The position numbers and the translations under genes were made by a program. Source: Lytechinus pictus (Eukaryota). From it: 64,000 bases of DNA. Below are positions 1 through 53,358 of the stretch, one piece after another. The stretch covers positions 29,514,001-29,578,000 of the forward strand of contig NC_087251.1 in the NCBI RefSeq assembly GCF_037042905.1. Direction: 5' to 3'. Position 1 is the stretch's first letter; every line of letters starts with the position of its first letter. A model generated the notes under the pieces. It saw only the letters and a program-made list of their open reading frames with translations. It was not told the origin of the DNA and ran no database searches.

Positions 1-3000
1 AAAAATTGGACAAAATTGGCCAAAATTGAGCAAAATAATATTTGTTCAATATTTCCCCCGAAACCCCCCCAAATCAGCCATCTTTGCTCCCTGGGATGTT
101 TTAGCATCCTAACCGATTATTACAGCGAGAATCAAGAGGATCCAGATGGGTTTGAATTTTCGACCCCCTCGCCCCACCCGCGACATGGAAAATTGGGCAA
201 AATTGGCCAAAATTGAGCAAAATAAAATTTGTTCAATATTTCCCCCGAAACCCCTCCAATCAGCCGTCTTGGCTCCCTGGGATGTTTTAGCATCCTAACC
301 GATTATTACAGCGAGAATCAAGAGGATCCAGGAAGTCTGAATTTTCGACCCCCTCGCCCAACCCTCGACATGGAAAATTGGGCAAAATTGTGCAAAATAA
401 TATTTGTTCAATATTTCCCCCAAAACCCCCCCAAATCAGCCGTCCTCGCTTCCTGGGATGTTTTAGCATCCTAACCGATTATTACAGCGAGAATAAAGAG
501 GATCCAGGGAGTTTGAATTTTCGACCCCCTCGCCCCACCCGCGACATGAAAAATTGGGCAAAATTGGCCAAAATTGAGCAAAATAATATTTGTTCAAAAT
601 TTCCCCAGAAACCCCCCCCCCCCCAAATCAGCCGTCTTCGCTCCTTGGGATGTTTTAGCATCCTAACCGATTATTACAGCGAGAATCAAGAGGATCCAGG
701 GAGTTTGAATTTTCGACCCCCTCGCCCCACCCGCGACATGGAAAATTGGGCAAAATTGGCCAAAATTGAGGAAAATAATATTTGTTCAATATTTCCCCCG
801 AAACCCCCCAAAATCAGCCGTCTTCGCTCCTTGGGATGTTTTAGCATCCTAACCGATTATTACAGCGAGAATCAAGAGGATCCAGGGAGTTTGAATTTTC
901 GACCCCCTCGCCCCACCCGCGACATGGAAAATTGGGCAAAATTGGCCAAAATTGAGGAAAATAATATTTGTTCAATATTTCCCCAGAAACCCCCCCCCCC
1001 AAATCAGCCGTCTTCGCTCCTTGGGATGTTTTAGCATCCTAACCGATTATTACAGCGAGAATCAAGAGGATCCAGGGAGTTTGAATTTTCGACCCCCTCG
1101 CCCCACCCGCGACATAGAAAATTGGCCAAAATTGGCCAAAATTGAGGAAAATAATATTTGTTCAATATTTCCCCCGAAACCCCCCAAAATCAGCCGTCTT
1201 CGCTCCCTGGGATGTTTCAGCATCCTAACCGATTATTACAGCGAGATTCAAGAGGATCAAGGGAGTTTGAATTTTCGACCCCCTTACCCCACCCATGACA
1301 TGGAAAATTGGGCAAAATTGGGCAAAATTGGGCAAAACTGAGCAAAATAATATTTGTTCAATATTTCCCCCTAAACCCCCCCAAATCAGCCGTCCTCGCT
1401 TCCTGGGATGTTTTAGCATCCTAACTGATTATTACAGCGAGAATCAAGAGGATCCAGGGAGTTTGAATTTTCGACCCCCTCGCCCCACCCGCGACATGGA
1501 AAATTGGGCAAAATTGGCCAAAATTGAGCAAAATAATATTTGTTCAATATTTCCCCCGAAACCCCCCAAAATCAGCCGTCTTTGCTCCCTGGGATGTTTT
1601 AGCATCCTAACCGATTATTACAGTGAGAATCAAAAGGATCCAGGGAGTTTGAATTTTCGACCCCCTTGCCCCACCCGCGACATGTAAAATTGGGCAAAAT
1701 TGGGCAAAACTGAGCAAAATAATATTTGTTCAATATTTCCCCCTAAACCCCCACAAATCAGCCATCCTCGCTTCCTGGGATGTTTTAGCATCCTAACTGA
1801 TTATTACAGCGAGAATCAAGAGGATCCAGGGAGTTTGAATTTTCGACCCCCTCGCCCCACCCGCGACATAAAAATTGGGCAAAATTGGGCAAAATTGAGC
1901 AAAATAATATTTGTTCAACATTTCCCCCGAAACCCCCCCAAATCAGCCGTCTTCGCTCCCTTGGATGTTTTAGCATCCTAACCGATTATTACAGCGAGAA
2001 TCAAGAGGATCCAGGGAGTTTGAATTTTCGACCCCCTCGCCCCACCCGCGACATGGAAAATTGGGCAAAATTTGCCAAAATTGAGCAAAATAATATTTGT
2101 TCAATATTTCCCCCGAAACCCCCCAAAATCAGCCGTCTTTGCTCCCTGGGATGTTTTAGCATCCTAACCGATTATTACAGCGAGAATCAAAAGGATCCAG
2201 GGAGTTTGAATTTTCGACCCCCTTGCCCCACCCGCGACATGGAAAATTGGGCAAAATTGGGCAAAACTGAGCAAAATAATATTTGTTCAATATTTCCCCC
2301 TAAACCCCCCCAAATCAGCCGTCCTCGCTTCTATGGATGTTTTAGCATCCTAACTGATTATTACAGCGAGAATCAAGAGGATCCAGGGAGTTTGAATTTT
2401 CGACCCCCTCACCCCACCCGCGACATGAAAAATTGGGCAAAATTGGCCAAAATTGAGCAAAATAATATTTGTTCAATATTTCCCCCGAAACCCCCCCAAA
2501 TCAGCCGTCTTCGCTCCTTGGGATGTTTTAGCATCCTAACCGATTATTACAGCGAGAATCAAGAGGATCCAGGGAGTTTGAATTTTCGACCCCATTGCCC
2601 CACCTGCGACATGGAAAATTGGGCAAAATTGGCCAAAATTGAGCAAAATAATATTTGTTCAATATTTCCCCCGAAACCCCCCCAAATCAGCCGTCTTCGC
2701 TCCCTGGGATGTTTTAGCATCCTAACCGATTATTACAGCGAGAATCAAGAGGATCCAGGGAGTTTGAATTTTCGACCCCCTCGCCCCACCCGCGACATGG
2801 AAAATTGGGCAAAATTGGCCAAAATTGAGGAAAATAATATTTGTTCAATATTTCCCCCGAAACCCCCCAAAATCAGCCGTCTTCGCTCCTTGGGATGTTT
2901 TAGCATCCTAACCGATTATTACAGCGAGAATCAAGAGGATCCAGGGAGTTTGAATTTTCGACCCCCTCGCCCCACCCGCGACATGGAAAATTGGGCAAAA

Positions 3001-6000
3001 TTGGCCAAAATTTAGGAAAATAATATTTGTTCAATATTTCCCCAGAAACCCCCCCCCCCAAATCAGCCGTCTTCGCTCCTTGGGATGTTTTAGCATCCTA
3101 ACCGATTATTACAGCGAGAATCAAGAGGATCCAGGGAGTTTGAATTTTCGACCCCCTCGCCCCACCCGCGACATGGAAAATTGGGCAAAATTGGCCAAAA
3201 TTAAGGAAAATAATATTTGTTCAATATTTCCCCCGAAACCCCCCAAAATCAGCCGTCTTCGCTCCCTGGGATGTTTCAGCATCCTAACCGATTATTACAG
3301 CGAGATTCAAGAGGATCCAGGGAGTTTGAATTTTCGACCCCCTTACCCCACCCATGACATGGAAAATTGGGCAAAATTGGGCAAAATTGGCCAAAATTGA
3401 GGAAAATAATATTTGTTCAATATTTCCCCCGAAACCCCCCAAAATCAGCCGTCTTCGCTCCCTGGGATGTTTCAGCATCCTAACCGATTATTACAGCGAG
3501 ATTCAAGAGGATCCAGGGAGTTTGAATTTTCGACCCCCTCGCCCCACCCGCGACATGAAAAATTGGGCAAAATTGGCCAAAATTGAGCAAAATAATATTT
3601 GTTCAATATTTCCCCCGAAACCCCCCCAAATCAGCCGTCTTCGCTCCTTGGGATGTTTTAGCATCCTAACCGATTATTACAGCGAGAATCAAGAGGATCC
3701 AGGGAGTTTGAATTTTCGACCCCCTCGCCCCACCCGCGACATGGAAAATTGGGCAAAATTGGCCAAAATTGAGCAAAATAATATTTGTTCAATATTTCCC
3801 CCAAAACCCCCCAAAATCAGCCGTCTTTGCTCCCTGGGATGTTTTAGCATCCTAACCGATTATTACAGCGAGAATCAAGAGGATCCAGGGAGTTTGAATT
3901 TTCGACCCCATTGCCCCACCTGCGACATGGAAAATTGGGCAAAATTGGCCAAAATTGAGCAAAATAATATTTGTTCAATATTTCCCCCGAAACCCCCCCA
4001 AATCAGCCGTCTTCGCTCCCTGGGATGTTTTAGCATCCTAACCGATTATTACAGTGAGAATCAAGAGAATCAAGAGGATCCAGGGAGTTTGAATTTTCGA
4101 CCCCCTCGCCCCACCCGCGACATGAAAAATTTGGCAAAATTGGCCAAAATTGAGGAAAATAATATTTGTTTCAATATTTCCCCCGAAACCCCCCCAAATC
4201 AGCCGTCTTCGCTCCCTGGGATGTTTAAGCATGCTAACCGATTATTACAGCGAGATTCAAGAGGATCCAGGGAGTTTAAATTTTCGACCCCCTCGCCCCA
4301 CCCGCGACATAAAAATTGGGCAAAATTGGCCAAAATTGAGCAAAATAATATTTGTTCAACATTTCCCCCGAAACCCCCCCAAATCAGCCGTCTTCGCTCC
4401 CTTGGATGTTTTAGCATCCTAACCGATCATTCCAGCGAGAATCAAGAGGATCCAGAGAGTTTGAATTTTCAACCCCCTCGCCCCACCCGCGACATGAAAA
4501 ATTGGGCAAAATTGGCCAAAATTGAGGAAAATAATATTTGTTCAATATTTCCCCCGAAACCCCCCCAAATCAGCCGTCTTCGCTTCTTGGGATGTTTTAG
4601 CATCCTAACCAATTATTACAGCGAGAATCAAGAGGATCCAGGGAGTTTGATTTTTCGACCCCCTCGCCCCACCCGCAACATGGAAAATTGGACAAAATTG
4701 GCCAAAATTGAGCAAAATAATATTTGTTCAATATTTCCCCCGAAACCCCCCCAAATCAGCCATCTTTGCTCCCTGGGATGTTTTAGCATCCTAACCGATT
4801 ATTACAGCGAGAATCAAGAGGATCCAGATGGGTTTGAATTTTCGACCCCCTCGCCCCACCCGCGACATGGAAAATTGGGCAAAATTGGCCAAAATTGAGC
4901 AAAATAATATTTGTTCAATATTTCCCCCGAAACCCCTCCAATCAGCCGTCTTTGCTCCCTGGGATGTTTTAGCATCCTAACCGATTATTACAGCGAGAAT
5001 CAAGAGGATCCAGGAAGTCTGAATTTTCGACCCCCTCGCCCAACCCTCGACATGGAAAATTGGGCAAAATTGTGCAAAATAATATTTGTTCAATATTTCC
5101 CCCAAAACCCCCCCAAATCAGCCGTCCTCGCTTCCTGGGATGTTTTAGCATCCTAACCGATTATTACAGCGAGAATAAAGAGGATCCAGGGAGTTTGAAT
5201 TTTCGACCCCCTCGCCCCACCCGCGACATGAAAAATTGGGCAAAATTGGCCAAAATTGAGCAAAATAATATTTGTTCAATATTTCCCCCGAAACCCCTCC
5301 AATCAGCCGTCTTTGCTCCCTGGGATGTTTTAGCATCCTAACCGATTATTACAGCGAGAATCAAGAGGATCCAGGAAGTCTGAATTTTCGACCCCCTCGC
5401 CCAACCCTCGACATGGAAAATTGGGCAAAATTGTGCAAAATAATATTTGTTCAATATTTCCCCCAAAACCCCCCAAAATCAGCCGTCCTCGCTTCCTGGG
5501 ATGTTTTAGCATCCTAACCGATTATTACAGCGAGAATAAAGAGGATCCAGGGAGTTTGAATTTTCGACCCCCTCGCCCCACCCGCGACATGAAAAATTGG
5601 GCAAAATTGGCCAAAATTGAGCAAAATAATATTTGTTCAAAATTTCCCCAGAAACCCCCCCCCCCCCCCAAATCAGCCGTCTTCGCTCCTTGGGATGTTT
5701 TAGCATCCTAACCGATTATTACAGCGAGAATCAAGAGGATCCAGGGAGTTTGAATTTTCGACCCCCTCGCCCCACCCGCGACATGGAAAATTGGGCAAAA
5801 TTGGCCAAAATTGAGGAAAATAATATTTGTTCAATATTTCCCCCGAAACCCCCCCAAATCAGCCGTCTTCGCTCCCTGGGATGTTTCAGCATCCTAACCG
5901 ATTATTACAGCGAGATTCAAGAGGATCCAGGGAGTTTGAATTTTCGACCCCCTCGCCCCACCCGCGACATGGAAAATTGGGCAAAATTGAGCAAAATAAT

Positions 6001-6424
6001 ATTTAGTCAATATTTCCCCCGAAACCCCCCATAATCAGCCGTCTTTGCTCCCTGGGATGTTTTAGCATCCTAACCGATTATTACAGCGAGAATCAAAAGG
6101 ATCCAGGGAGTTTGAATTTTCGACCCCCTTGCCCCACCCGCGACATGGAAAATTGGGAAAAATTGGGCAAAATTGAGCAAAATAATTTTTGTTTAATATT
6201 GCCCCCGAACCCCCCCAAATCAGCCGTCTTCACTCCCTGGGATGTTTTAGCATCCTAACCGATTATTACAGGGAGAATCAAGAAGATCCAGGGAGTTTGA
6301 ATTTTCGACCCCCTCGCCCCATCCGCGACATGGAAAATTGGGCAAAATTGAGAAAAATAATTTTTGTTTAATATTGCCGCCGAAACCCCCCCAAATCAGC
6401 CGTCTTCGCTCCCTGGGATGTTTT
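1..6424. repeat. Tandem satellite array, ~186-bp monomer, ~34 copies, running off the left edge of the window
   Basis: Monomer AAAATTGGGCAAAATTGGCCAAAATTGAGCAAAATAATATTTGTTCAATATTTCCCCCGAAACCCCCC...GGATGTTTTAGCATCCTAACCGATTATTACAGCGAGAATCAAGAGGATCCAGGGAGTTTGAATTTTCGACCCCCTCGCCCCACCCGCGACATGG repeats continuously, with one BamHI site per unit. Units degenerate after ~5950 and stop at 6424. Confidence 0.98.
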
Positions 6425-18693: not shown

Positions 18694-18881
18694 GCTGGGA
18701 GTGGTGGCGTGCGCCCATGTAATCCAAGCTATGTGGGGAAGTTACAATTTGATGCAGAGGTTCGAGGTTCGGGCCCTGGTCACGTCTTTCGGATGGTGAC
18801 GTTAAAGGTCGGTCCCAGACGTAAATAATCGTATCTGATTGATACACGTCTCACAAAACTCAAATACACTGACTTACACAC
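18694..18881 (+). mobile_element. SINE with 7SL-RNA-like (Alu-domain) head, B-box and Deu/Nin-like core
   Basis: 18694-18731 GCTGGGAGTGGTGGCGTGCGCCCATGTAATCCAAGCTA matches the human 7SL 5' end as recalled at 29 of 36 aligned positions. B-box-like GGTTCGAGGTTCGGGCCC at 18759-18776. CGTCTTTCGGATGGTGACGTTAAAGGTCGGTCCC at 18783-18816 resembles the Deu/Nin domain. A diverged second copy lies at 21898-22056 (-). Confidence 0.7.
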
Positions 18882-19838
18882 TAGCGTACCTACGGGGGGG
18901 GGGGGGGGCAGAGAGGGCAGAGTGCCCCCTGACGAGTCACAACCCATGCAAGGGGGATATCCCTGACCCCCCTGACGAGTCTTGAAGACCTTTTTTTTTT
19001 TGCTTGTCAATTTTTTGTCTGGTACGAAATCCTTTATTTGCGGTTGAAGACTTTTTCTTTTTTTTTGCTTGTCAAATTTTTTGGCCGACTCTATTGAGAT
19101 ATAATCTCCAGCTTGGACCATCCCTTTAAGAACAAAAGTCATGGTCGTCGGGAGTGTTGGTAATCGGTACCGATATTTGTCGGTATTCAGGGCCCACCCC
19201 CCCCCCACTGGAATAAGCCTAGCGACGCAACAGGGGGCGACTCTTCTGACGGGGGGATGACCCCATGACCCCCCCTGGTGCCGCCACTGTTTTCATAGAC
19301 CAACCCGTTACCCCACTAGGCCACTCCTTTCTGGCGTCATTTACTAAATTGAAGACCTCCATAAATTCCTTGTGCATTGCGGCCATCAGTTAGGTCCAAC
19401 TTTTTTAATAGCAACATGATTTATGTAGTTTAAGGAAATTAAGGGTAGGTTTCAGACTTTGGGGCCTCACATCCCTATCCTTTGAATCCGAGTAGGCGTG
19501 ACCCCCCCCCCCCCCGTACGCCGCACCCCCGGCCATTCAGGGCAAGCAATGCGCAAAATTTCATATTTACCGGTTTAATGACAAAAGCTGCAAGAGAGCC
19601 AAAATTTTGACATTTTGAATACAAAATCGAATTTTTGATAGATTTTTTACATGAAAGAAAAATATCCCTTTTACCCTTTATATTTTTCCTTGTTTTCCGG
19701 GCCCTTCTTCTTCCCCTTTTTTTTTGTTTGATAATGAGGATGATAATGATAATAACTATTAGTTTATCATTACATGCTCTTATTTTTTTCACCTTAAGAC
19801 CTGGGGAGAGGTTAATTTGGGGCCCGGAGGGGATTGAT

Positions 19839-21696: not shown

Positions 21697-21897
21697 GGAT
21701 CGAGTTGCCTGCATCCCCATCCATCCCGCTGTCCATGCCTCTGGAAAACTAATAGCCCTATTTAGATATATATTTAGAGACCACTGAATATTTTCATCTC
21801 TTTGTAATTATTTTTTTTTTTTATAACGGCTATCTTCAGTGAAGGCGAAAAAAATGTTATGCGTGATGTGCAAGCATGTGTATGTGAGGGGGGATAC

Positions 21898-22056
21898 AGA
21901 CGTGTTTTAATCAAATGAGACCGACTTTGGATGTCAGCATCCGAAATCCATGTAGTGATCAAGGTTTGAACCTCGAACCTCGCCTCTGCGCACAATCGCA
22001 CATTACTTCCACATATTTCCCAATTCTCGACAGATCGCGCATCAGCAACGCCCAAA
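21898..22056 (-). mobile_element. Diverged second copy of the 18694 SINE
   Basis: The reverse complement reads ...TGGGCGTTGCTGATGCGCG...ATATGTGGAAGT...GCAGAGGCGAGGTTCGAGGTTCAAACCTTGATCAC...TTTCGGATGCTGACATCCAAAGTCGGTCTC...TGATTAAAACACGTCT, colinear with 18694-18852. Confidence 0.65.
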
Positions 22057-47700: not shown

Positions 47701-50700
47701 ACAAAAATTTCCAAAGCCAATCAGAAATGCATCAAGATCAATCAAGGCCATCCACAGCCATGTTTTTTGTTGGCCTTGGATTTATGAGTTAAGCAATTAT
47801 AGACACTCCAGTTATCAGTTTATCTTCCAGCATGCAATGGGTCTGGCAAGCAGCAGGGTAAGGTCTCATTTTTAAAAAGCCTGTGATATGACTCAGGCTA
47901 GAAAATAGATTACAACTAGCTCCACATTTTGTGAAGTTACAGAAAATTTATTTTGTGTAGCAAGTTTTTTTTACATAGGACTGTACAGAACATGGATGAA
48001 AGCTTTTTTCTTACAACCAGAACTGCTGATCGAATTTGAAAAGTGAATTAATTTCCTGTAATCTAAAAAGGTATGTTCTGTAATTGATTTTTGCATTGTG
48101 GCCAAAAACCAAAAATACTTTTATCGTCATTATTTTTTTTATTGTATGATTCACTTCTTCATGTGTCATTTTTAGGATATGACCCCAGACGAATTAAGAG
48201 CTGAACTACCTGAACATCAACCAAGATATGTACTCTATAGTTACTGTTATCACCATGACGATGGAAGAATATCATATCCACAGGTGTACGTTCACATACA
48301 TCCAGAAGGTGTGTATAACATTAAAAGAAAGTGTGTTTGGTGTATAATCAAGTAAAACAATAGTTTAAGATAAGGAGGGTCTTTTTTATTCAAAAAGGGT
48401 CCAAGCCAAGATTTATTTTCTGCAATTTTATATGAAATTTTTAAGTTATGATAATAACATATCACTGTTCCATGAAATAATGTACAACTACCAACTGTCA
48501 GAAATTCATATTAAGTTTTCATCCAAATTTGAGGGAATGTTCTGTTCTATTTTATTCTTTCATTTGCTCTACAGCGGCGAGTAGAAAACACCCGTTTTAT
48601 TCATTTTAATTTAAACCACCTAAACATGTATGTAGCTGTTACAAAAAAGATGTTCAACCAGCTGTTTTCAACTCACTGTATGACTGCCTTAGAGCAAACG
48701 TGACTGGGGTATAATTTACTTTGCCTCAAATGCAACGTATTAGGATGCATGGCAAAAATGCATGAATGCATGTAATGCTTATGAGCTCTGAGGTGACTTG
48801 CTTACAGCTAAAAATCAATTTCAAGTGAGATGAAATTTACTATCTAATGATTGAATTGGTCTACTGCTTGGTTGAATCAAAATTGTATGCCAATCAGAGT
48901 TAAAGATTATGCAATATTTTCATCCTCTAAAAATGATAGTTTGGTGTTTTAGTGTAAGCTTTATATTCATACATGAGTAATCTCCCCACTGCACATTACA
49001 TGTAGGCCCTATATAACAATGGTTTGGGGGGGGTTTTCTGGGTGCAAGGCAAAAATTTTGGTATGGGCATCTGAAATGATGAATTGCCTTGATGCTCCAA
49101 GCACCTAATCAGGTCAGCCGTGCTAAAGACCGGGTAAGAATTGCACAATTTGCCGTGCTTACAAACATTTATATTTAAGGGGTATTATTATTTTTTAACT
49201 GACAATATAGCAACGACTTCCATCAGCAACCAGAAAAGGGTAAATGAAAACAAAAATTGGCTGTAATGATTTATGTGTGAGGATGTATAGACTGCTTGAC
49301 ATCTGTTCTTTCTTTCTTTTTTAATTTAGGTTGCCAACCAGAATTATCTATGATGTACAGTGGGTCTAATAATTATGTTGTACAAGCAATTGGTGTTACT
49401 AAGGTATGTATAAAATACTTGATGACAATTCAACTACATTATCTTAGTAAGTAGTGTATGATGATAGTATTCTTGTTTTGTTTGTTGAATATAATGGAAA
49501 TGGTTGATTAATTATGGGTACTTTTAAATCGTGATAGTTTATAAGAAAATGTAGGCTATGGATGGGCATTTCATGGAAGAAAGAATGTGAAACATGAATT
49601 TTCAGCTTTTAAAATAAAGTAATTTGAGGTTTTTGATATTTTTTTTTGGAATTTCAATTTTTGGCAAGGCTGCATTTTCTTTGGATTTTGAGGGTCTTGT
49701 TGTGAGGCCACCAACCACTTATTGCAAATCAGTAACTTTTACCCTAGAACTATTCTTCTTTCTTAGAGTGTGAATCCTTTTGTTGGAAGAAGGCCCATTG
49801 TAGAGTCACAGTTAAGATCCTAGTTGCTTTAAGTTCATTTTTAACGTCTTTGGTTCTGCTAAATTGTCATTCAAATTTTTTTTTCAGCATTTCCTTTTTC
49901 AATTTGGAAGACAAATCATTTTCAGAATCAATTAGAAGTTGATTAAACGCAACCATGGCTTGAACTCAACTTCTTTGAAAAACATGTTTCTTAAAAAATT
50001 GAATAAGCAAAGCATTACTCTTTGACCTAACTTTGGGAGGTTGCAAGCAAATACATGTATATCTTTCATATATGACTAATTAGCTTTCAATTCATAATAA
50101 GCTGTTAGGCAAGGATCACTATGAATGTCCAAAATATTAATTTGGGCTGTAAATTCAAACTCTGTATTAGTTGACAGAGTAATTCCCTCTCAATCTTCGG
50201 ACCTGATATCAGTTTTCGAGTCCAGGTTCCTCTCCCTTTAAAGGACACAGGATGTTAAACTTCCTTGCCTTCAATCGAAAGGAAGTAGAGGACCTGTGAA
50301 CAATTCTAAAGCTTTTGTACCCATTTAACTTCTTGCCATCGTGATTTGTAGCATTTCTAGTTAGAAAATGAGGATAAAGGTCTGTGAGATGGCCAATAGA
50401 TATCCAGTGATGTTTTATGTATTCTGCATGACCTGTGTTTCAGTTGTAAAAAGTGCTTGTTTGTGCTCTGATTACCCCGACATCTCTCCAGAAGCTTACA
50501 TATTTGAAACCCCTAATCTTCCGCAAGAAGCTTGCTGTATGCCAACTATTGGTAATGGATATCTAGCCACTACTGTGTATGGTAACTTCATTCATGTGAA
50601 TGGTATCTATAACGGCAGGTATGGTGACAGTCACCATACAGAGGTCCCCTCCATGGCAGACATTCATATAGAAAGCAATGGCAAGGAATTCTTCACTGAA

Positions 50701-53358
50701 TCTTTCATGTTGAATGTAATCAAGGGAATATTTTACCACAAAATAACCCTCAAAGCAGGTAACATAGAACACAGAATATATGCTCATCAACATACGACTC
50801 GTCTCATTGTGAACGAAATATTAATCTCCAGAAAGCAAGAATCTACTGAGGAAATAACAGTCTCTTTGACTCACAAGTTCAACCCAAAGAGTGATGATGT
50901 TAGATTACAGGTGGTAGCTCCCAAGACAGAAGGTGATCCATGGTTCTCAAGTGGGAGTACAATTACTTCTGAAACACCTACAAGTTCAACTTCACAACTT
51001 TATATGTATTGGGATGATGTGCCTAGAACCCTTACATTGGTGTCAGGTGCTGATTCTCAAGTGTGGACATTTCTTTTTGCAATATCTGGAAGGAAATCTG
51101 AAGCCTTGCTGTCACTGATAGCAGGATGGGAGTTGAGGGATGCAGGGATGCTCTGTCAGATGCATGAGCATGCCTGGCAACAAAAATGGAAGGATGGGAA
51201 GATTGATCTAGATGGAACCAACCTGGAACTGGCCAAAGCTATCTATGGTAGTATGTATTATATTACAAGCTCTCTACCTCCTCAAGGAAATGATGTTCAA
51301 TTTCCATTCCATTTTTATGGCATCAGTCCCGGAGATTTGGCTCATGGGGGACGTGATCCTGATGGTTATAAAGGACACGTTTTCTGGGATCAGGAGACGT
51401 GGATGTTCCCACCAATACTGATGTTCCATCCAAATGTTGCACTCGAAATGTTGAAGTCTAGATCTCACCACCTGCAGGCAGCTAAGGACAATGCTGCCAA
51501 GAATGGCTACAGAGGTGCACAGTATCCCTGGGAGATGGCATTTACAGGTGTGGAAGTCTGTCCTGCTACACCGTACCTACCAACGAACTTCACATCAGTG
51601 GAGACATTGCTTTTGCTGTGCAGCAACACTTGTGGGCAACCAATGATACAACATTCCTTGAGGACCACGATGGATTTGAGATGATCAAGAGTATTGCAGA
51701 ATTCTGGGAGAGCAAGGTGGAGTACAACCAAACGTTGGAAGCATACACAATTAGCAATGTCATGCCACCAGATGAATATCATGAAAGTGTCAATAACTCT
51801 GTCTTTACCAACACTATTGCCCAAATAAGTCTCAGACTACCAGCGTATGCTGCTTCATTGATTAACAAGTCAGTTCCTGCAGAATGGGCAGACATTGCAG
51901 ATAACATGTTCATTCCCTTTGATCATAAGCTACAGTATCACCCAGAGTTTGAAGGCTACACTCCTGGAACCATTGTCAAACAAGCAGATGCCATCCTGCT
52001 TGGATACCCATTGATGGCCAATATGACAGCAGCCACCAGGCGGAATGATCTTGAGATCTATGAGACCTATGAAGGAGCCAATGTAACCGATCCTGATGGG
52101 CCTGCAATGACTTGGGGAATGTTTGCCATTGGCTGGTTTGAAATGAAAAACCTGTCCAAAGCTGAAAAATTTATTGCTCGCAGCTATGCCAATATCCAAG
52201 AACCATTTAAAATTTGGACAGAAACAGCCACAGGGGCAGGTGCTGTTAACTTTGTCACTGGAATGGGAGGATTCCTTCAGGCCATTGTCTTTGGTTATGG
52301 TGGAATACGACTACAAAGAAACAGTCTCCTTGTTGACATCACACTTCCTGCAAACACAGATACTATAACCTTTAGAGGTCTCAACTATTTGGGAAACTCC
52401 CTATGCATCTGTGGGAAAAATGACACTGTTCATGTCACTGTCCTTGACAGGAATAACCTTTCCTTCCATGCTGATCTGCAACTTGTTCAGGGATCTCATG
52501 TTATACCGTTATATCTCAAAACTACAGTTACTGTTCCTCGTTTTACATTCAGCATAGAACCAACACACTAGTAGATATTAGAGGTACATTGTCTCATTTA
52601 GTATAAACTTATGCAGTTTCTATTTATGCATGCATATACACATAAGATATGGTCAGATTGGTGGAAATGAACTAATTGTTTTTTCTTTAACCTTCAAACT
52701 ATATTATCTTGTTGTCAATAAACACCTTTCAACTGCAGCTACTCATTACACTCACTAAATTGGTAATGCAAGACAATAATATAATATGCAATACTAAATT
52801 AGAATTATAGAACCACATTTTTCTAAATTGCAAGTGAATCATATTTCTCAAAATGTGTTATAAATCCATATTTATTTTCTTCTAAACTATGTAAAGAGTT
52901 TTTTTTTAAACACAAATGATTTATGTGCAATAATAATGATTCAAAAGAACCTCCCTGGTTTTTCCTATTTTATGGTCAATTGAATGAGAGTAACATAAAA
53001 TTTATTATTTTCTTTGCCCAAAGTAATTCCATTTTGATAGTTTTCATTATGTTTGCTGCATAATGTTCAAAGGTATGTTTATGAAAGATTTCCTTTGTGA
53101 ACGCTTATTACTTCTAAACTTGTTATATGAATAAGGCCCTTTTTTCAAAAATGCATTTGATGAAATAATACTATTTTGATATATTATGTTTTTGTCAGAA
53201 CCTACACGTATGTGCTTTCAATTTGCACTTTGATGTTGATTTTACATTTTGTTTTGTCTTTCTTTTTTTCTCTTTTTCTACTGCAGCATTTTGAATTACG
53301 GGACTTGGATGAGTTCACAGAGGAGTGGATGCAAAAAAAACTGAAATTTTTTAGATGA
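44648..53358 (+). CDS. GMF: Glia maturation factor (ADF-H family, Arp2/3 debranching factor), spliced: join(ATG exon unlocated, 44648-44744, 46415-46464, 48176-48308, 49330-49403, 53287-53358)
   Basis: Spliced translation (M)AANLKVCDIDESLIPLFKKFRYRKDTNNAAIVMKIDKSKLLVVLDDEYEDMTPDELRAELPEHQPRYVLYSYCYHHDDGRISYPQVYVHIHPEGCQPELSMMYSGSNNYVVQAIGVTKHFELRDLDEFTEEWMQKKLKFFR* is colinear with vertebrate GMFB/GMFG. All introns are GT-AG with compatible phases. The protein is 142 aa if exon 1 contributes only ATG. Confidence 0.95.
45314..45516. repeat. Intronic near-perfect inverted repeat (~75-bp arms) with an internally duplicated arm segment
   Basis: TTAGTATTACTGATGACAGTCCAGAAATCAAAATTGTAAAGTCCTTC...TTTGGCCA and its reverse complement. 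ATGGCCAAATTTTACTTTCTGGAGCT(A/T)AGAAGGACTT occurs twice in tandem. Confidence 0.9.
46415..46464 (+). CDS. GMF: GMF coding exon 3 (50 nt)
   Basis: TACAG|TG AAG ATA GAC...; (M)KIDKSKLLVVLDDEYE; donor GAG|GTAAGA. Confidence 0.93.
46479..47589. mobile_element. Composite MITE in a GMF intron
   Basis: TIRs CAGACCTGCCAAC / GTTGGCAAGTCTG with subterminal AATACTGA repeats. A hAT-like end CAGGGGTTCTCAAAC is nested at ~46602. No clear TSD. Confidence 0.6.
48176..48308 (+). CDS. GMF: GMF coding exon 4 (133 nt)
   Basis: TTTTTAG|GAT ATG ACC...; DMTPDELRAELPEHQPRYVLYSYCYHHDDGRISYPQVYVHIHPE; donor AAG|GTGTGT, phase 1. Confidence 0.95.
49330..49403 (+). CDS. GMF: GMF coding exon 5 (74 nt)
   Basis: TTTAG|GT TGC CAA...; (G)CQPELSMMYSGSNNYVVQAIGVTK; donor AAG|GTATGT, phase 0. 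Confidence 0.93.
50368..52571 (+). CDS. PGGHG: Intronless glycoside hydrolase family 65 gene, protein-glucosylgalactosylhydroxylysine glucosidase (PGGHG/ATHL1)-like; one 1-nt frameshift near 51577 (pseudogene, null allele or sequence error)
   Basis: GH65 motifs IGNGYL, YKGHVFWDQETWMFP, GAQYPWE, (NE)LHISGDIAFA, MPPDEY, NNSVFTN, VKQADAILLGYP, DGPAMTW and NFVTGMGGFLQ are spread over two overlapping ORFs. About 734 aa when one base is restored. Hydrophobic N-terminus. Confidence 0.9.
52717..52722 (+). terminator. Candidate polyadenylation signal for the nested PGGHG transcript
   Basis: AATAAA about 145 nt after the PGGHG stop and upstream of the GMF last-exon acceptor. Confidence 0.4.
53287..53358 (+). 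CDS. GMF: GMF last coding exon (72 nt including stop)
   Basis: Long polypyrimidine tract + CTGCAG|; HFELRDLDEFTEEWMQKKLKFFR* matches the GMF C-terminus (FEIRxxxDLTEEWLxEKLxFF). Confidence 0.95.
   Translation, partial: HFELRDLDEFTEEWMQKKLKFFR

Follow-up and report, generated by a model that had tools for sequence, protein, structure and literature searches.

A young dispersed SINE family in Lytechinus pictus with a chimeric anatomy and a head very probably taken from the host 7SL RNA

The window analysed here is a 64-kb stretch of DNA from Lytechinus pictus, and at positions 18694..18881 of its forward strand lies a slightly worn copy of a dispersed SINE. Compared with a consensus-like copy of the same family (L004:1500-1673), the window copy differs by 6 mismatches over 173 aligned positions and has two extra nucleotides, CA, in its head. 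Its parts are listed in Table 1. A sequence-only reading of this DNA had described a 7SL-like start, a tRNA-type B box and a Deu/Nin-like core at this place. The B box is present in the window copy, and all of the strings given for the three parts are found in the window letters, with GGTTCGAGGTTCGGGCCC at 18759-18776 and CGTCTTTCGGATGGTGACGTTAAAGGTCGGTCCC at 18783-18816.

The head includes the UGUAAU motif. In the window copy the CA insertion is at 18716-18717, and this insertion and two substitutions fall within the stretch that is identical to 7SL in the consensus-like copy. The B-box consensus is GGTTCGANNCC; the GAGGTTC duplication of the window copy produces two overlapping GGTTCGA motifs, the second of which (18766-18776) reads GGTTCGGGCCC. 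The core holds a small hairpin, CGTC...GACG, and the 3' stem-loop of the window copy is weakened by two changes, at 18831 and 18852. The Metazoa_SRP model of Rfam aligns to window positions 18694-18843 with 17 bits (E 0.019), ARAGORN finds no tRNA in the window, and no Rfam tRNA match falls on the window copy at E up to 10. No clear target-site duplication was found for this copy in the window flanks.

Directly behind the SINE tail, at 18895-18990, is a repeat bounded by a G-run and a C-run (GGGG...CAGAGAGGGCAGAGTGCCCCCTGACGAG). Similar poly-G/poly-C units occur in the flanks of other loci, and the Rfam PyrR207 match at 18895-18990 is spurious. Further away, two overlapping ORFs of 439 and 361 aa lie in different frames at 50365-52571 on the forward strand, and both match Glyco_hydro_65m (E 4e-19 and 3.5e-30). 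Judged by these matches, the region is a GH65-type gene which is either frameshifted or split by an intron. At 291-6034, also on the forward strand, nine long ORFs (122-522 aa) lie in a repetitive stretch; their Pfam matches are short and low-complexity-like, and no stretch passes on its own.

Table 1. Parts of the window copy, its old relative in the window, and the family copies that lie beside 7SL genes. Assignments follow sequence matches.
Feature	Position	Strand	Remarks
7SL-derived head	18694..18742	+	family 1-47; corresponds to helices 2, 3 and 4 of the SRP Alu-domain 5' part
Linker TACAATTTGATGCA	18743..18756	+	family 48-61
B-box segment	18757..18776	+	family 62-81; subfamily with the 7-nt duplication GAGGTTC
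Nin-DC/Deu-like core GGTCACGTCTTTCGGATGGTGACGTTAAAGGTCGGTCCC	18778..18816	+	family 83-121; resembles the 5' end of the domain
3' stem-loop	18816..18852	+	family 121-157; outer stem CAGACGT/ACGTCTG, inner stem TAATCA/TGATTG
Tail ACAAAACTCAAATACAC, then decayed (AC)n run TGACTTACACAC	18853..18881	+	window letters
Old, strongly diverged relative	21878..22056	-	body and part of tail alignable
SINE copies upstream of 7SL genes	L031:1291-1467, L035:1295-1460, L036:1316-1460		contig 10

The head was compared with the 7SL genes of the same genome. A genome search with Metazoa_SRP found seven full-length 7SL genes at 272-283 bits, each with a TCCTTAnTTT-type box about 30 nt upstream and a T-run at its end. 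The same search returned 18 weak matches at 31.9-34.9 bits, and the three weak loci given (L038-L040) are all copies of the SINE. In blastn-short the consensus-like copy is identical to the contig-12 7SL gene at 31 of 31 bases (positions 1-31, E 8e-14) and to the other six genes at 28 of 28 (positions 4-31, E 5e-12), so that aligning the head to the species' own SRP RNA gene, a check proposed together with the original claim, yields 28-31 consecutive identical bases. The SINE starts at the same A as the 7SL genes. It shares with the contig-12 gene both the ACT at positions 1-3 and the AGT that closes helix 2; the other six genes have ACC...GGT, which makes ACU...AGU a compensatory helix-2 pair. 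Another subfamily (L039, L040) reads AGCTACATGG or AGCTACGTGG, and the AGCTACATGG variant is identical to a contig-1 7SL gene over CTACATGG.

The similarity to 7SL ends after the closing AGT (position 47), where helix 5 begins in 7SL. Since it ends just after helix 2 closes, the SINE keeps the exact helix 2-3-4 unit with its UGUAAU and is without the 3' part of the Alu domain. Past the head, blastn-short against the seven genes gave only 8-nt noise and left the 7SL 3' region unmatched, and the helix-5 pairs proposed by the Rfam alignment are mostly mismatched. Metazoa_SRP matches all five clean copies examined (24-32.6 bits, and up to 34.9 for the best copies in the genome), and no Rfam tRNA match appears on the clean copies at E up to 1. 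This Rfam comparison had also been suggested at the outset, and it favours a 7SL head: the copies draw SRP matches and no tRNA match, and the head does not fit a tRNA better than it fits the host 7SL. There are also weak mir-1268 matches on the head. Taken by its letters, the first 47 nt of the SINE are a copy of host 7SL RNA, although the 31-of-31 match to the contig-12 gene could come from gene conversion in either direction.

Folded in isolation, the head forms the two hairpins that the 5' domain of host 7SL also forms, with a folding energy no better than that of shuffled sequences (z +0.28), and real 7SL pieces behave likewise. The full-length minimum free energy structure (z -1.42) does not keep helix 3. 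The 3' hairpin at 121-157 persists whether the MFE or the centroid fold is taken. A genome pattern search also asked whether any SINE copy has a 7SL-type box upstream, spaced as in the genes. It matched the contig-12 7SL gene alone, and no source gene for the family came to light.

Two observations concern the surroundings of the 7SL genes. At six of the seven (L031-L036, contigs 1 and 10) a B-box-like GGTTCGAGTC(C/T) stands 17-45 nt behind the terminator, that is, downstream of the T-run of the gene, and is followed by GGTGT and a further T-run; it is absent at the contig-12 gene. Going by its letters, this motif may be a downstream TFIIIC site. In addition, a SINE copy lies about 37 nt upstream of each of the three tandem 7SL genes on contig 10, just 5' of the TCCTTAATTT box. 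The paralogous genes on contig 1 have this upstream position unfilled. The three copies go back to a single insertion, which was duplicated afterwards as part of the gene unit. For a family whose copies number roughly one per 500 kb, to lie so near a Pol III gene is striking.

The sequence-only reading had taken the element for a member of an interspersed family, as opposed to the SRP gene itself, and the genome-wide search bears this out. A DNA search of the 811-Mb assembly with the element gave 1,687 first-look candidates, and the 48 matches listed are 87-100% identical, nearly all of them beginning at query position 1-4. Exact words were counted as a floor for the copy number, with backward-pattern controls that each gave 0. 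The SINE-specific head 15-mer CCTGTAATCCAAGCT occurs 1,161 times in the genome, a tail 16-mer in SINE context 979 times, and a 30-mer across the junction of head and body 756 times. These three counts give the family the copy number that SINEBase expects of a SINE. The element is about 174 nt long plus its tail, its copies are found on all large contigs with unrelated flanks, and it falls within the SINEBase definition of an interspersed, non-tandem repeat below 1 kb. A satellite was considered and rejected, since most copies are single and have unrelated flanks. A DNA transposon was rejected as well, as the target-site duplications vary in length and terminal inverted repeats are absent.

A sample that does not depend on the head was drawn from the places of the tail 16-mer on contig 1, where 54 of 55 were examined (C1:43696423 was left out). 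Of these tail-anchored copies, 41 begin at position 5 or earlier and 3 at positions 6-14, while the other 10 are 5'-truncated at 79-129 with unrelated DNA upstream. The head is therefore present in 44 of 54 copies; its absence from most copies, named beforehand as an outcome that would count against the 7SL reading, is not what the sample shows. The truncation points form a cluster at 87-90, immediately before the small hairpin of the core, and a tail-pattern search found more truncated copies that end near 128-134.

The high copy number is accompanied by target-site duplications, a feature that the sequence-only reading had proposed to look for. Many copies have duplications of 5-13 nt after the (AC)n run, which are clear for example at L003, L006, L008, L029 and L239. 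Among 41 unbiased copies, 9 have a flank repeat of at least 7 nt, against 5.0% of 796 mismatched-pair controls, and 5 have one of at least 9 nt, against 1.3% of the mismatched-pair controls. Many of the shorter duplications start with AC or CAC, which would fit priming on the (AC)n tail. Target-site duplications, 5' truncation and a 3' repeat tail are together the marks of LINE-mediated retroposition.

The chimeric anatomy is uniform among the copies, and the identity of the head to 7SL is host-specific. Subfamilies can be told apart by shared indels and sites, which are the 7-nt duplication, a TA deletion at 35-36 and T/C at 39. Of 45 full copies, 26 have a single B box, while in the other 19, as in the window copy, the 7-nt duplication is present. 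Median divergence from the subfamily consensus is 1.2-2.3% in substitutions, and some copies stand at 0-0.6%. By its low divergence, the dispersed family is young. Among dispersed copies the head is more diverged (76 of 2,033 sites, 3.74%) than the body (78 of 5,454, 1.43%); CpG decay of the CpG-rich head would explain this, and it shows no sign of constraint. The element contains no stretch of four consecutive T.

A minority of copies form head-to-tail arrays of 2-4 units joined by (AC)n plus TA, A or CTTA. Such arrays are found at C19:10865248-10865949, C2:17634174-17634686, C8:17842740-17843113 and L039:1502-1875. Tandem duplication could have produced them, as could the insertion of a new copy into the (AC)n tail of one already present.

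The Deu/Nin-like core that had been claimed holds up in part: about 24-40 nt resemble the domain's 5' end, but the rest of the domain is not alike. True Nin-type tRNA-headed SINE copies from the same genome, found by a motif pattern that has two exact matches there, served as the reference. The core is identical to them at 20 of 24 bases with a score of 26, against a shuffle mean of 17.5 (sd 2.4), and this score was reached by 7 of 500 and 3 of 500 shuffles for the two copies. Aligned by eye with BivaMD-SINE1_AsNo, it has 32 identical of 37 ungapped columns (44 with gaps). In the available part of PMC4824008, the stretch after the Meta-domain of BivaMD-SINE1 is a partial Deu/Nin domain that starts ...AGTCACGGGTCTTTCGGATGAG-ACCTTAAA-AACCGAGGTCCCG..., and in that of PMC4758252 the Nin-DC domain reads TCGGATGGGACAATAAACCGAGGCCC in Lottia and GTCTTTCGGATGAGACTCAAAACCGAGGTCC in the gastropod Pan_1.

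The Deu/Nin-DC SINEs, such as SINE2-3_SP of sea urchin and BivaMD-SINE1 of bivalves, resemble the element in that its core, GTCACG..TCTTTCGGATGG.GAC.TTAAA...GGTCCC, matches the start of their domain (PMC4824008, PMC4758252 and PMC5804259, each as far as available). The match is to the Nin/Deu start as printed for BivaMD-SINE1, Pan_1 and Lottia_Nin; SINE2-3_SP is likened by description only. In the parts of these sources at hand, the Deu/Nin-DC SINEs differ in having tRNA heads, and only about 24-40 nt of a domain of roughly 120 nt are alike in the element. As read from the alignments, the likeness to Nin-DC/Deu is real but short, and is confined to the 5' end of the domain. The two reference copies, at L129:1340-1700 and L130:1270-1700(-), are tRNA-headed and have a typical Nin-DC/Deu-type domain (TCGGATGGGACATTAAATGGAGGCCC...), and this SINE is possibly of the SINE2-3_SP kind.

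The body was also looked for behind other heads. RNA runs were compared as contigs, which show neither starts nor strand, over L004:1542-1673, that is, from the linker onward. A run from organism A (X4) covers this whole stretch, linker included. In a run labelled 'sea urchin metagenome' (X15, 134 contigs) the cover extends from SINE position 71 to about 157-168 with 80-99% likeness, and in one labelled 'echinoderm metagenome' (X16, 131 contigs) it extends from position 84 to about 157-168. In both of these the linker is without cover and the upstream loose ends differ from the SINE, with consensus lines that agree at only 0.6-0.86; the upstream consensus of X16 contains GGTTCGAAAC, a B box. 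The downstream loose ends of both are TAAAAAC..AAC-rich tails. A further run, X17, gave no cover at all. The uncovered linker and the other upstream letters suggest, with moderate force, that the same body stands behind other fronts there. Read this way, the 7SL head is probably a lineage-specific add-on, made in the lineage of organism A, to an older SINE. Within the genome, a search for an abundant sibling with the same 23-nt B-box segment and another head found none; its 5 matches are all indel variants of the SINE.

Older relatives are present. The sequence-only reading had reported a second copy at 21898-22056 on the reverse strand, and this is a genuine relative, whose 21897-21981 the body profile matches at E 4.3e-9. 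It is an old one, though, with a head that is only remotely alike and survives as remnants (GGGCGTTG..., ATGTGGAAGT); it has no SRP or tRNA match in Rfam and no near copy elsewhere in the genome. A further old relative was seen at L232:3250-3600; remnants of a 7SL-like head survive in it, and where the core would be it has a palindromic insert of about 80 nt. As old relatives still have head remnants, the graft is older than the present burst.

The family is likely copied by a LINE, and the 3' stem-loop is predicted, by analogy, to be the recognition site for the reverse transcriptase of that partner. Pattern searches for the partner around the tail found only SINE copies with indels or 5'-truncated copies. 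A tail profile run over 460 kb of sampled DNA found a look-alike of the hairpin plus tail; this was rejected as a LINE because the composite repeat around it, at least 3 kb long, is non-coding and has no RT ORF. No partner was found in 30 RT loci and 40 stretches of 4.5 kb downstream of RT matches, which held one ordinary SINE copy and one old relative. The composite repeat gave 809 first-look candidates (family loci L162-L191). Its hairpin and AAC-rich tail resemble the 3' end of the SINE at L158:1626-1669, L075:402-450 and L076:760-790, and one stem pair of its hairpin is changed on both sides, from A-T to G-C.

Altogether, the explanation that we hold to be very probable is a young dispersed family of chimeric SINEs whose head comes from the host 7SL. 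In the mechanism proposed for it, the 5' domain of 7SL RNA, or of an ACU...AGU-type 7SL gene like the one on contig 12, would have been joined, by template switching or recombination, to an older Nin/Deu-type SINE in place of its own front, and the B box of the older SINE would have been kept. By analogy with Alu, Pol III would begin transcription at the first A, which corresponds to +1 of 7SL. The promoter would consist of the 7SL-derived A-box region at positions 6-15, where Kojima 2020 places it in human 7SL (PMC7245038, in the part available), and the B box at about 64-81. With no T4 inside the element, Pol III would read through to a T-run in the flank. The head, predicted to fold like SRP RNA helices 2-4, could bind SRP9/14 as proposed for Alu, and this binding would bring the SINE RNA to ribosomes that are making LINE proteins. 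The 3' hairpin and (AC)n tail would then be the entry site for the reverse transcriptase, as in stringent-type SINE/LINE pairs, with priming on AC-like microhomology at the nicked target. The SRP9/14 step is less assured in that the element is without the 3' Alu-domain part, which Alu, B1, Urop and SINE1-1_EBu all keep.

An account that asks less of the head deserves appreciable weight, though clearly less than even. It holds that the head serves only as a promoter, an A-box-like start region for Pol III, that SRP9/14 is uninvolved, and that the element spreads by means of a LINE-like tail as tRNA-type SINEs do. It agrees with the short length of 7SL that is kept (just 47 nt, with the 3' half of the Alu domain missing), with the ordinary folding energy of the head, with a B box that belongs to the non-7SL part, and with relatives that seem to have other heads in other echinoderm-labelled data sets. 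It leaves less well explained why the cut falls exactly at the end of helix 2, so that the complete helix 2-3-4 unit with UGUAAU is kept and not only the first 15-20 nt, why the compensatory helix-2 variant is retained, and why head remnants persist in old diverged relatives.

A separate question is whether the family has been catalogued already, for example as a SINE2-n_SP of Repbase or in Dfam, with a head called tRNA-derived or of unknown origin, so that only the reading of the head would be new. We regard this as possible and somewhat improbable. Repbase has contained SINEs from sea urchin with Meta, Deu/Nin and CORE domains since 2005, and SINE2-1, -2, -3, -4c and -6_SP are filed, in the descriptions available, as tRNA-derived with Meta, Deu/Nin, CORE or L2-tail modules. 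The SINEBase rule as given in the available part of PMC3531059 requires an overlap of at least 60 nt with a small RNA, and the origin of a 47-nt head could be overlooked under it. Set against the SINEBase wording of at least 60% identity to tRNA, 5S rRNA or 7SL RNA over at least 60 nt, the element offers 47 nt. Among the SINE classes, it has the head from 7SL that defines SINE1 (31/31, 28/28, the helix-2 variant and the SRP-model matches), but of the 5' and 3' Alu-domain regions that SINE1 joins by deletion of the S domain it has only 7SL 1-47. It has no head recognisable as the tRNA of a SINE2, only the B-box motif.

Statements in the literature stand against an existing entry. The available parts of texts by a Repbase curator (PMC7245038) and by the SINEBase authors (10.1101/2024.08.25.609555) restrict 7SL SINEs to supraprimates, hagfish and shrew mole, and four distinctive words of the element are unmatched in the papers that were searched. 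A search of the literature, as distinct from the sequences in repeat libraries, found no 7SL-derived SINE from an invertebrate. The family may still be deposited in repeat libraries under another label.

The remaining alternatives are far weaker. It is very improbable that the copies are chance truncated 7SL retrocopies, or products of repeated template switching, in place of one family: LINE machinery does make chimeric small-RNA retrocopies (PMC7245038, in the part available), but such products would not share the same junction 30-mer 756 times, a head in 44 of 54 tail-anchored copies and subfamilies with common indels, and we read this uniform chimeric structure as that of a family. That the head is a diverged tRNA with a 7SL likeness by chance has little beyond the tRNA-type B box behind the head to suggest it, and is refuted by the 31/31 and 28/28 identity to host 7SL together with SRP-model matches where the tRNA model gives none.

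Among known systems, the chimeric SINE with a 7SL head comes closest to SINE1-1_EBu of the hagfish Eptatretus burgeri. In the available part of PMC7245038 (Kojima 2020), a well-defined SINE1 is stated only from Euarchontoglires, and SINE1-1_EBu is added to these as an element that arose as a chimera between 7SL and a pre-existing SINE2 and is mobilised by RTE. According to the same text it is young, has roughly 10^3 copies, takes its head from host 7SL, joins 7SL to an older tRNA-type SINE, does not depend on L1 and has a microsatellite-like tail, and in all of these the two are alike. They differ in that SINE1-1_EBu is described there as keeping both 5' and 3' Alu-domain parts and as having a bipartite RTE-derived body and an identified RTE partner, whereas the Lytechinus element has 7SL 1-47 only, a B box and Nin-like core from an older SINE, an (AC)n tail and an invertebrate host.

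The better known families share less with it. Alu, FLAM and B1 of Euarchontoglires and Urop of the shrew mole also start at the 7SL +1, have helices 2-4 with UGUAAU and reach high copy number, and they are unlike the element in consisting of 7SL sequence only, ending in poly(A) and using L1 (10.1101/2024.08.25.609555, in the part available). The Euarchontoglires families keep 7SL regions 1-63, 76-83 and 267-299 (PMC7245038, in the part available). In the Lytechinus element, by contrast, the 7SL part is limited to 47 nt and the 3' domain is missing; a foreign B box, a core and a 3' hairpin follow, and the tail is (AC)n. The Tu-type SINEs known from tree shrews and the bushbaby GarnAlu are also chimeras of 7SL-derived and tRNA-derived SINEs, but as set out in the available part of PMC7245038 they are whole SINE monomers fused within the Alu/B1 lineage, while here a 47-nt 7SL 5' domain appears grafted onto the T-arm region of another SINE.

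Papers to 2024 know 7SL SINEs only from supraprimates, shrew mole and hagfish, as far as the available parts of PMC7245038 and 10.1101/2024.08.25.609555 go, and by the same sources 7SL-derived SINEs, of which Alu and B1 are the best studied, are yet the rarest by origin, with three births counted, all in vertebrates. The idea that this is a further, independent birth, as the sequence-only reading had proposed, gains from the host-specific letters of the head and from a body with other upstream letters in two echinoderm-labelled data sets. We put it forward tentatively, as an attractive but doubtful reading, that in this family a SINE with a 7SL head was born once more, independently and for the first time in an invertebrate, and that a bare 47-nt 5' domain, lacking the 3' domain and combined with a foreign B box, was enough to be taken up and retained by a SINE independent of L1. 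A fourth birth, in an echinoderm-type genome, with a much shorter 7SL piece and a tail that is not in the L1 style, would bear on whether 7SL heads matter as promoters or through SRP9/14, and with a head that is the exact helix 2-4 unit the family would be a natural minimal test case.

The case also shows how 7SL origins can go unnoticed in existing repeat libraries when a SINE is formally defined by, for example, an overlap of 60 nt with a small RNA. If the full reading is true, the hijacking of SRP9/14 and of ribosomes would be a general route to SINE success across deuterostomes, and this family would be a minimal natural construct with which to test it.
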